Positions 12,001 to 15,000 of a stretch of DNA of 64,000 nucleotides are shown piece by piece; the stretch's first letter is position 1; every line of letters begins with the position of its first letter. Where the stretch lies: the NCBI GenBank assembly GCA_020137815.1, contig CM035351.1:558001-622000 (forward strand), read 5' to 3'. Position numbers and translations under genes: made by a program. Source of the stretch: Hormiphora californensis. Its lineage: Eukaryota; Animalia; Ctenophora. The notes beneath the pieces are model-generated. The model worked only from the letters and a program-made list of their open reading frames with translations. It had not been told where the DNA came from and made no database searches.

Positions 12001-15000
12001 CTTTCCTTTGGAGACCATGTTCTGGGAATGAAGCTCAGCACATTCATCCTTGAACCTACAAATACCATCAGGACATTTCTCAAGACCAGGTGGACATTTG
12101 GCATCTTTCTTCTTATTTTTCCTCTTGTTTTTCTTCTTGTTTTTCCTCCGATTTTTCCTCCGGGTTTTCCTCCGGTTTTTCTTACTTTCCTTGTCATCTT
12201 TTTCATCGTCTGTATCTTTATTCTTTTCATCTTGCCCCTCTTCTTTCTTCTTTTCTTCCTCTTCTTTCTTCTTTTCTTCCTCTTCTTTCTTCTTTTCTTC
12301 TTCTTCTTTCTTCTTTTCTTCTTCTTCTTTCTTCTTTTCTTCCTCGTTTTCGTCAGGGATTCCGTTCTCATAAGGGTGCCATTGGTTTCTAGGGTAATAC
12401 TCTGGGCCTTTGTAGCCTGCCCCATAATAAGTCTTAATCCCTTTCTCACAACACTTACAGGTACCCCGACATTTTATCATCATAAAGTCGTAGTATCGCC
12501 TAGAGACAAATTATATTAGTTTAAAATAATAAGCTATCTACTGAAAAAGTAGGCATTTAAATGATATATTTAATGATAGTTCTTCTGTAACACTTACGCT
12601 CCTTTCTCGCACATTCCTTGCTCCTTCAAGGAAGAGCATTTATTTCCAGACTTTTTGTACTTGTAGTTATCCTCACACAATCCGACTGGCGCCTCAGGGG
12701 GAACCAATGGTTCTCCGTCCTCATGAGCTACGAGGGTAAGCCAATGAGCACCTAGACTAAAATAGCTGTTTCCCTCGAAGTCCCGGGAGAAATACCCATA
12801 TCCACCCTGGCCCCATCCTTCTCCCCAAGAGTTACGGAGCTGAAAGAGAACCCACGGTTAGGTCGGTTACCAACATCATATACTAATTACTAATTGATAT
12901 TATCTTACCTTCCAATATTTTCCCCACTCGTTCGTTCCATATCCCACGAGGGTTGCACCGTGTGTGGGACGGGAATGTGCGTACGGTTCTTCGTAATTCC
13001 CATACTTGTAGTACATGAGATCGTTATGAACGGTCATGATCACCCCTACCACTGTAGTAGCGAGAACTTTCTCGAGACTGCGATCTCCTCTCCGTACCGG
13101 TCTCATTTGGGTTAACCTAGCTTTTTTTAGTACATTCTTTGTTTTCCGTTTCCGGTAATCGCACACTCCCGAGTAGGTTGCAGTGTAGGGAATCTCGTCT
13201 GTGCCACCGATCCGTTGATAAAGCATGACATATTTATTTGGCATTACGAATAACCCTCCATTATCACAATTAAAAGCCTTGGTACTGCACTCAAGGATCT
13301 CCTGCTCGGCCATGTTTACTACATCACCTGTTTGTATTGCATAGAATTAGGAAATACTGGTCCCTGATTGGCTGATAACCAGTCACGTGACCTAAATAAC
13401 GAGTTCTAATTGGTTGTTTACCTGTTTGTATTGCATAGGCCCCCTCCAGCATGGACACAAATGCAAATGCCCAACAACTTCCACAGCTACCTTGGTCCTT
13501 TATCGGAGGATGCGTGTGTGTCCAGTCAACAGATTCTGGAATAGAATCAACATCATACACCTTGTTCCTTAATTTTGTCCATCTGTCCTGCTGTTCTTGA
13601 CTCCCCAGACCATCAGAGTGTGCTTGTTCAGGAAAGTCTGTCTCCGTGTCCATTTTATACTCAGGACTGTTTAACGACATATTTAGCCCCATATGCCGTT
13701 GTCGTTCATCAGCGGTGAGCAATGCAAATTTAGTAAGTCCTGCGATGAAAGTCTTGGTCGGATCTTTGTTTATTTTCTCGATCTCCTTTTTTGAATTAAC
13801 GAAATTAGAAAATCGGAGCTTTCTCCTCACCGGGTCAGCTCCTAGCAGTTTGTCGTTGCGTTCAGGACTGTAAAGAGCTTCCAATTGCTTGAATTCCTCA
13901 ACAAGGCTGAGCTTAGCTTGGGCATAGCCCAGCAGCAAAACTAGACAAACTCTGAGCAACATTAAATCGAATGAAATTTTCGGGAATGAATTGCATTTTA
14001 ATTATACTGCTCCTTCATAAAATCATTAAGCTGAAAAAGATTTTCTTAAACCCACGACTGGTTTTTCACGTATGTAAATTAGCATTGTAAATATCTCTTT
14101 GTCCCAGATGGTTTGATTTTGAGTAAAGGTGTCTCTGCTCTGTCTGGTAAAGTGACTGATTGTCAGCAGCCCTCACTGCCGAACTAGCAGCCGCCATAAA
14201 GGCAAGGGAATCTGTAGAAAAGGCTAAAATAGCTAAAATAAAAAAGCCATCGACCGAAACCAGCGTACCATTAGCCTTTTTAGGGCTAGACCATCTCCCC
14301 CAGCCCCCCTTATTTACTTTCTGCCGCATCAGTGAGTACCGGGTCGGACATCTGTATCATGTAGTATTGTTATTTCTCTGTCTGGGCTGTCTGTTAATCT
14401 GTTTGTCTGTCCGTCTAGTTGTTGATCAGTCTGTGCGTACCGTTGTTTTATCATTTCTGTGTGTGGCGTACTGCTCCTCAGCGAACTCAACACACTTACT
14501 GTGTCCGTGGTGAGCCCCCTCACTCAGGACAGCCCCTCTAAACAACCTGAGTGGGAGATGGAAGGAGATAGAGAGATGGAGAGGGATAGAGGGGAGATGG
14601 AGGGATAGAGGGAGATGGAAGGAGATAGAGAGATGGAGGGAGGGATAGAGGGAGATGGAAGGGGAGATAGAGAGATGAAGGAATGGAGTGATAGAGGGGA
14701 GAGAAATAGAGTTTGGAGAGAGAGATGAAGGGAGAGAGAGAGGGGGGAATTGAAAAGAAAGAAAAGTAGCTGAATAGATGGGCTAGAAAGGTAGTTAGTA
14801 TCCAGGGGGGACACCTGCCACCCGAACACATATTTACCATGCCACCCCACCATCCCATGAGTCTCAATAATAAGTCTTACTAGCAGCAGTCTAGCTGTTC
14901 TCTCTCTCTCTCTCACTCTCTCACTCTCTCTCTCTCTCTCTCTCTCTCTCTCTCTCTCCGTACTCACTTCCTCTCTCGTCCTCTCTTTCTCTCCGTACTC

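Follow-up and report, generated by a model that had tools for sequence, protein, structure and literature searches.

The window, a stretch of 64,000 nucleotides of Hormiphora californensis DNA, carries on its minus strand a gene identified from its sequence as a papain-family protease of the secreted type. In the gene model, five coding exons are separated by four GT-AG introns, and the joined exons form a frame of 643 aa with a single stop (Table 1). An Inhibitor_I29 domain was detected by Pfam (E 5.6e-6), and the Peptidase_C1 profile starts in exon 1 (profile positions 1-43) and continues into exon 2. The sole close homolog is the Pleurobrachia bachei gene model P0001, with 354 of 450 residues identical and no gap across the intron 1 junction, which places the source of the window near P. 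bachei among ctenophores. A search of representative proteins gave 123 matches, among which P0002 alone was close. No paralog of the protease gene was found in the window, and protein searches for a spliced product from the same species found none, which is weak evidence. The C-terminal part of the gene (11867-12839, minus strand) encodes Cys-rich ShK-like segments followed by an acidic and then a basic low-complexity tail; the ShK-like assignment comes from a sub-threshold Pfam match which was seen in P0001. P0001 departs from the window protein past residue 445 and carries an ERAP1_C domain at its end; this C-terminal part is probably a gene-model fusion.

Apart from the protease gene, the window possesses several other features. 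An uninterrupted 337-aa frame on the minus strand (33408-34421) encodes a cyclic-nucleotide phosphodiesterase domain (E 2.9e-70). A tandem array of 48-51-nt units at 28333-29625 is open in three frames, the longest of which has no Pfam match. Large nested inverted repeats were found at 20242-28415 and 50261-56106, with arms of up to 1069 nt at 99% identity; they represent either foldback-like elements or local assembly features. A satellite of about 4.5 kb with a unit of about 32 nt occupies ~34400-38950, and its first half is degraded. On the plus strand, a 357-aa open frame (59724-60797) shows no convincing Pfam match; from its appearance by eye, we take it to resemble a LINE ORF1.

Table 1. 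Coordinates of the protease gene, the intron 1 insert and the second core copy in the window.
Feature	Position	Strand	Remarks
Exon 1, coding part	13422..13962	-	signal-peptide-like start, I29 propeptide, catalytic QGSCGSCW
New intron 1	13328..13421	-	94 nt, GTAAAC..CAG, phase 1; splicing predicted
Exon 2	12909..13327	-	Peptidase_C1 profile 48-184, catalytic His region
Intron 2	12840..12908	-	older; in organism B, apparently also in distant homologs
Intron 3	12500..12597	-	in organism B too
Exons 3-5 with introns 3 and 4	11653..12839	-	rest of protease domain, then a C-terminal region that is Cys-rich and charged, stop
19-bp duplication, copy 1	13420..13438	-	ends CAG/GT, contains donor site
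19-bp duplication, copy 2	13326..13344	-	gives acceptor CAG and first GT of exon 2
MITE-matching part	13344..13427	-	interior and inner 7-8 nt of each TIR; outer 13 and 12 nt absent
Donor-end microhomology of target and element	13420..13427	-	8 nt in one subfamily, 6 or 2 nt in the other two
Branch-point-like CTAAT	13346..13350	-	A at -20; family consensus CTGAT; putative function
Second TIR-less core	57858..57925	+	non-coding by inspection; GTAAAC start, end ~10 nt earlier
Duplication round second copy	57840..57948	+	19 nt (57840-57858) and 24 nt (57925-57948), a 5-nt indel apart

On the minus strand, 17 nt ending in CAG are followed by a 77-nt repeat which opens with GTAAAC (13421-13345) and then by the same 17 nt again, the layout which an earlier note on this DNA had described. 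That note took the duplication to be 17 bp. The match is exact there, and with the GT included the direct repeat is 19 bp long (13438-13420 and 13344-13326). An exact repeat of 19 bp is expected by chance with a probability of 6e-12 per offset, or 4.6e-6 across 400 offsets and 1932 coding positions; as a class, long repeats at short range are not rare here, since 61 that reach 14 bp or more were counted in the 64-kb window, many of them within tandem arrays. Because the 19-bp repeat includes the GT, the empty site is a CAG/GT proto-splice site. The donor GT is common to the element and the duplication and its origin is therefore not assignable, so that the proposal of a GT supplied by the element was not sustained. 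The accompanying proposal, an AG taken from the duplicated exon end, agrees with the acceptor CAG lying in the second 19-bp copy. Both splice sites of intron 1 can derive from the duplicated CAG/GT. The element certainly contributes the donor positions from +3 onward (AAAC), a branch-point-like motif and length. This motif, CTAAT, is one base apart from the family consensus (contig loose end at 13349; metagenome copy L002). Introns gained at staggered breaks are characterized by a directly repeated exon end at their opposite border, as is present here. A 7-nt match to the element start lies in exon 2, 8 nt past the junction, and was not counted as evidence. As Rfam gave no match at 13200-13550, the repeat core does not belong to the known structured RNAs.

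The 94-nt insert is a real feature and a recent intron gain, and this is well supported. Among the 15 listed sequencing runs, six were compared (X1, X5, X9, X12, X13 and X15) and nine were left out (X2-X4, X6-X8, X10, X11 and X14); contig depths were not taken as copy numbers. X9 (organism B) and X12 are two runs of a related species. In the region 12420-13366, exon 2 runs straight into exon 1 in three contigs of X12 and in one of X9. In a separate comparison, an X9 contig passes over precisely the 94 nt. Both runs are taken as genomic because their contigs cross intron 2 in both cases, and intron 3 in X9, with no splice joint listed: an X9 contig of 502 bases spans introns 2 and 3, and an X12 contig spans nearly all of intron 2. 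A minor X5 contig also lacks the insert, at a depth of ~42 versus ~350 for the major version. The minor contig adjoining it shows 41 differences in ~380 letters, and the minor X5 version of the gene (12420-13800) shares variants with organism B. This version may represent gene amplification, a paralog or a second animal in the sample. The distant homologs P0002 and P0125 (47-48% identical) have a single frame through the intron 1 position, and their frames stop just after the intron 2 position, as expected of unspliced genomic frames. Replacement codons equal to those of P0001 account for 7 of the 15 among the listed X9 variants, and X9 therefore mixes ortholog and paralogs. The earlier note had regarded the intron as created by a short repeat and had asked for orthologs and paralogs to be checked for its absence. 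The site proved empty in X9, X12, the minor X5 contig, P0002 and P0125, and thus orthologous, paralogous and distant copies without the insert bear out an intron gain.

Four other accounts of the insert were considered and rejected. An assembly artefact is ruled out by the occurrence of the insert in the conspecific runs X1 and X5 with differing 3' ends. Loss of the intron in relatives would have to have happened several times, and it does not explain a repeat at 97% of its consensus. X9 is not RNA, as introns 2 and 3 are kept in it. In-frame read-through of the insert is ruled out by the stop after residue 212.

Intron 1 is very probably spliced, as judged from the reading frame, purifying selection and the tolerance of indels within it. 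Excision of 13421-13328 (GT..AG) restores the 20 protein letters exactly, as had been claimed, while the retained intron leads to the stop after residue 212. Conspecific exon variants comprise 11 synonymous and 4 replacement codons against an expectation of 21% synonymous (P 2e-5; P 2e-3 when 33% is expected), counted on the 40 best-supported entries per table and including some variants which may predate the insert. Frame-breaking indels listed near the insert all fall inside it. The insert of X5 lacks 3 nt at the 3' junction. That of X1 has a shorter duplicate, with 9 nt ahead of the AG, and more pyrimidines; its visible part is 8 nt shorter on balance and has also lost CTAAT, and the 3' junction of the window itself is absent from X1. 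If the rest is unchanged, the intron lengths are 94, 91 and 86, none of which is divisible by three. Each of the three haplotypes observed has a 3' junction of its own, and the form in the window may not be the original one. A CTAAY motif lies 17-38 nt upstream of the AG in 4/4 introns of the gene (background, 7.7% of 35-nt windows). The donor GTAAAC of intron 1 departs more from GTAAGT than do those of introns 2-4, and the pyrimidine tract of intron 1 is weak (7/15 versus 10-12 in the other introns). No contig of the RNA runs X13 and X15 spans the intron 1 junction, and this missing cover says nothing on splicing; X13 comprises oligo-dT contigs from mixed-community RNA, possibly with DNA, and X15 is an RNA run by guess.

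The loose ends of contigs point to an abundant MITE of ~109 bp with 20-bp terminal inverted repeats (TIRs) carrying one mismatch as the source of the insert. Contigs placed on the stretch numbered 11,542 in X5 and 12,230 in X9, nearly all of them at the MITE core. On both sides of the core, the best-supported loose ends read into an inverted repeat which opens CAGGAACCGACC; 176 further rows exist beside those used for this reading, and the ends are a consensus over many sites. Contig ends leaving the core enter the inverted repeat in all four runs (4/4), in degenerate form in X15. The bounds of the part which matches the MITE were taken from loose ends at 13344, 13421, 13425 and 13427. A pattern scan for the core found two loci in metagenome contigs, L001 and L002, both with all or part of the MITE ends, and none in prokaryote genomes or viral contigs. 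The two ends of L001 share a 9-bp exact inverted match. The absence of TIRs, another point of the earlier note, is true of the copy in the gene and not of the family, as seen from the contig loose ends and the inverted match in L001. The family is short, non-coding, high-copy and TIR-bearing, as is typical of MITEs, and intron 1 shares with Introners its derivation from a dispersed transposon family. The other introns of the gene, 2-4, gave no match to the core (3/3).

On the donor side the family falls into three subfamilies, which match the target over 2, 6 or 8 nt. Within the 8-nt microhomology, 3 nt lie beyond CAG/GT (p 0.023 before allowing for the three subfamilies). At the far junction of the intron 1 insert a single nucleotide is shared, which is at chance level. 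When folding was compared with shuffled sequences, L001 with its paired ends gave z -3.4 and L002 gave z -1.1; the two cores in the window (z -1.0 and -1.6) fold no better than shuffles. Contigs of X9 were also found to join core to core (13427 to 13346; 13412 to 13346), representing tandem cores without outer TIRs in organism B. In L002 the family copy (~545-670) lies just past the stop of an uninterrupted, apparently spliced cathepsin-L-like frame, and hence probably in a 3' UTR.

BLAST of the core against the window found one other copy (98.5% over 68 nt; Table 1). Here element and target share at most 3 nt next to the GT and a single nucleotide on the opposite side. Both TIR-less cores of the window (2/2) start at the same GT, lack the outer TIRs and are flanked by duplications of 19-24 bp, and one of the two forms an intron. 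Beside the second copy, at 57956-58323, a direct duplication of 77/85 bp with an 8-nt indel encloses ~206 bp of filler. This filler is unrelated to the MITE core and has no other match in the window, and the anatomy is like that of the intron 1 insert. Taking intron 1, the second copy and the 77/85-bp duplication together, a long duplication with filler looks like a recurrent type of mutation here.

Transposases require terminal repeats and leave a short duplication of fixed length. The two TIR-less copies were therefore not pasted in as they stand, and the route by which intron 1 arose is probably non-transpositional. The earlier suggestion that ordinary cut-and-paste does not account for the insert, and that a repeat core was inserted from a template, is the best reading in the light of the absent outer TIRs and the 19-bp duplication. 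What served as template is a separate matter. We give about even weight to a DNA template, with the insert copied in from another genomic copy of the MITE during repair of a staggered break. Two nicks on opposite strands, ~19 bp apart around CAG/GT, would open the site. The 3' end in ...ACAGGT would then pair with the inner edge of one TIR, to which it matches in sequence, and prime synthesis there. About 75 nt of the interior would be copied up to the other TIR, where the observed endpoint may reflect a TIR-TIR stem. Rejoining and fill-in would leave the 19-bp duplication that is seen. The duplicated CAG/GT would then serve as donor and acceptor 94 nt apart, to which the filler would add donor positions +3 to +6, the branch-like motif and length, and splicing would restore the former mRNA exactly.

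Parts of this route have parallels. According to the accessible text of PMC8355091, staggered breaks with complementary overhangs yield tandem duplications in cells. Templated insertions by polymerase theta are described as mostly shorter than 25 bp, with the flanks as their template (PMC12426944, accessible part); because of this short and local nature, copying 75 nt from a remote locus calls for a different pathway or an extended form of this one. Counting against the copying-in of DNA, the 8-nt microhomology occurs in one of three subfamilies and the far end shares 1 nt at each copy. The mechanism is drawn from two TIR-less copies.

The template could also have been RNA, with a LINE reverse transcriptase nicking the target and priming inside a MITE transcript at the loop beside the stem; we consider this possible, though on the unlikely side. 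The duplications of 19-24 bp, the fixed primed end, the variable other end and the end-complementarity fit tailless retropseudogenes. MITE contigs occur in the oligo-dT RNA library X13, but that library may contain DNA. The position of the L002 copy, just after the stop of an apparently spliced cathepsin-like frame, and the folding of L001 with paired ends also favor a transcript, while L002 itself folds like shuffles. Both targets are unlike TT/AAAA; that consensus belongs to mammalian L1 and may not be that of a ctenophore LINE. Furthermore, no reverse transcriptase was found among the eight window frames scanned.

It is less likely that a whole MITE transposed first and that later microhomology recombination with an empty allele, along with small deletions, cut away the outer TIRs and made the duplication. 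The commonest loose ends of the family do read into TIRs, the 3' junction is deletion-prone, with three forms in three haplotypes, and the core-to-core joints in X9 (13427 to 13346) lack outer TIRs. Against this, the scheme takes three events or more and passes through an intermediate that disrupts a coding exon, and the whole series would have to occur two times within 64 kb from an identical start point. We regard as improbable that the TIR-less core is a mobile subfamily, a true Introner with its own donor and an AG drawn from a long target duplication, a view not far from that of the earlier note. Both window copies begin with GTAAAC, and families with target-site duplications (TSDs) and no TIRs exist, for example in Chrysochromulina (bioRxiv 2022.06.06.494994, accessible part). 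However, the two copies end ~10 nt apart and their duplications differ in length; one copy is non-coding, one intron is known, and the other three introns of the gene show no core match. It is very improbable that the insert is poorly spliced within a gene copy that has recently become a pseudogene, or that the window junction is mis-assembled: the RNA runs give no junction, the donor and pyrimidine tract are weak, a paralog exists and X1 lacks the exact 3' junction of the window, but the 643-aa frame is intact with a synonymous excess, the insert is present in two other runs and the nearby listed indels are confined to it.

Templated insertion of the MITE core can be compared with known systems as described in the accessible parts of the cited reports. 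In Daphnia pulex, new introns arise by repair of staggered breaks and carry exon-end direct repeats of 4-12 bp (PMC4202315; reviewed in PMC3443670), and the source of most of them is unknown according to the former paper. The present case resembles them in its new GT-AG intron, in the exon-end repeat at the far end and in early polymorphic length changes. It differs in the length of the repeat, 19 bp, and in a filler with an identified source and junction microhomology. The splice sites of Introners come from the element, from the duplication or from both, and TIRs are absent in some of them (bioRxiv 2022.06.06.494994, PMC12130899, PMC11282704). Like those of Micromonas, Chrysochromulina and Florenciella, intron 1 is transposon-derived, restores the mRNA exactly on excision and takes its acceptor from duplicated exon, and it shares with them a MITE source and a marine host. 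Unlike Introners, it contains a partial rather than a whole element, with 13 and 12 nt of the outer TIRs missing. The duplications are long and variable (19 and 19/24 bp) rather than short and fixed (3-8 bp in the Introner examples), and one intron has been found here so far in place of families of introns.

A duplicated AGGT which supplies both splice sites is a standard model of intron gain (PMC3443670, PMC3296678, accessible parts). Intron 1 agrees with the AGGT proto-splice models (PMC3443670) in that a duplicated AG/GT gives donor and acceptor, and differs in being a hybrid, where a short duplication is combined with foreign filler adding length and a branch-like motif. Tailless retropseudogenes are described with a TSD filter of 8-35 nt, complementarity of 2-18 nt and truncation at loops (PMC5322556, accessible part). 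Long duplication, end-complementarity to the target and truncation near a stem-loop boundary are shared with them; the differences are that they are made by mammalian L1 from small RNAs or mRNAs, where the template here would be a DNA-transposon transcript, and that the targets here lack the L1 consensus.

In the literature open to full-text search, which holds few subscription papers, no report of this MITE family or of transposon-derived introns in ctenophores was found, and nothing pairs Introner with Pleurobrachia. The accessible text of the related genome paper PMC8527503 and of PMC8469720 contains nothing on this MITE family. In the one supplementary file available from the 2022 Introner screen, no Introners are scored for Mnemiopsis leidyi, and P. 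bachei occurs once, in the genome list. No ctenophore name occurs in 12 of the 14 supplementary files of the 2025 Introner screen. Ctenophores are absent among Introner hosts in the searchable literature.

For most new introns the source can no longer be identified, and break-repair and transposon routes of intron gain are usually treated separately. In the present case the family of origin and the two junctions are available together with an empty site and three haplotypes that have begun to diverge, and the two routes are joined in one event. Intron 1 is a gain with an identified source by way of an unusual route, which combines known kinds of intron birth. On a wider scale, we hold as doubtful, and offer tentatively, that the hairpin loop of a pleurobrachiid MITE has repeatedly been primed into staggered cuts, without its ends and without transposase, which would make it a family-scale generator of exact introns. 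Such priming would select proto-splice sites, because the MITE loop opens with CAG/GTAAAC and closes with the branch-like motif. If microhomology priming is real, it would explain why inserts of this kind land at CAG/GT.
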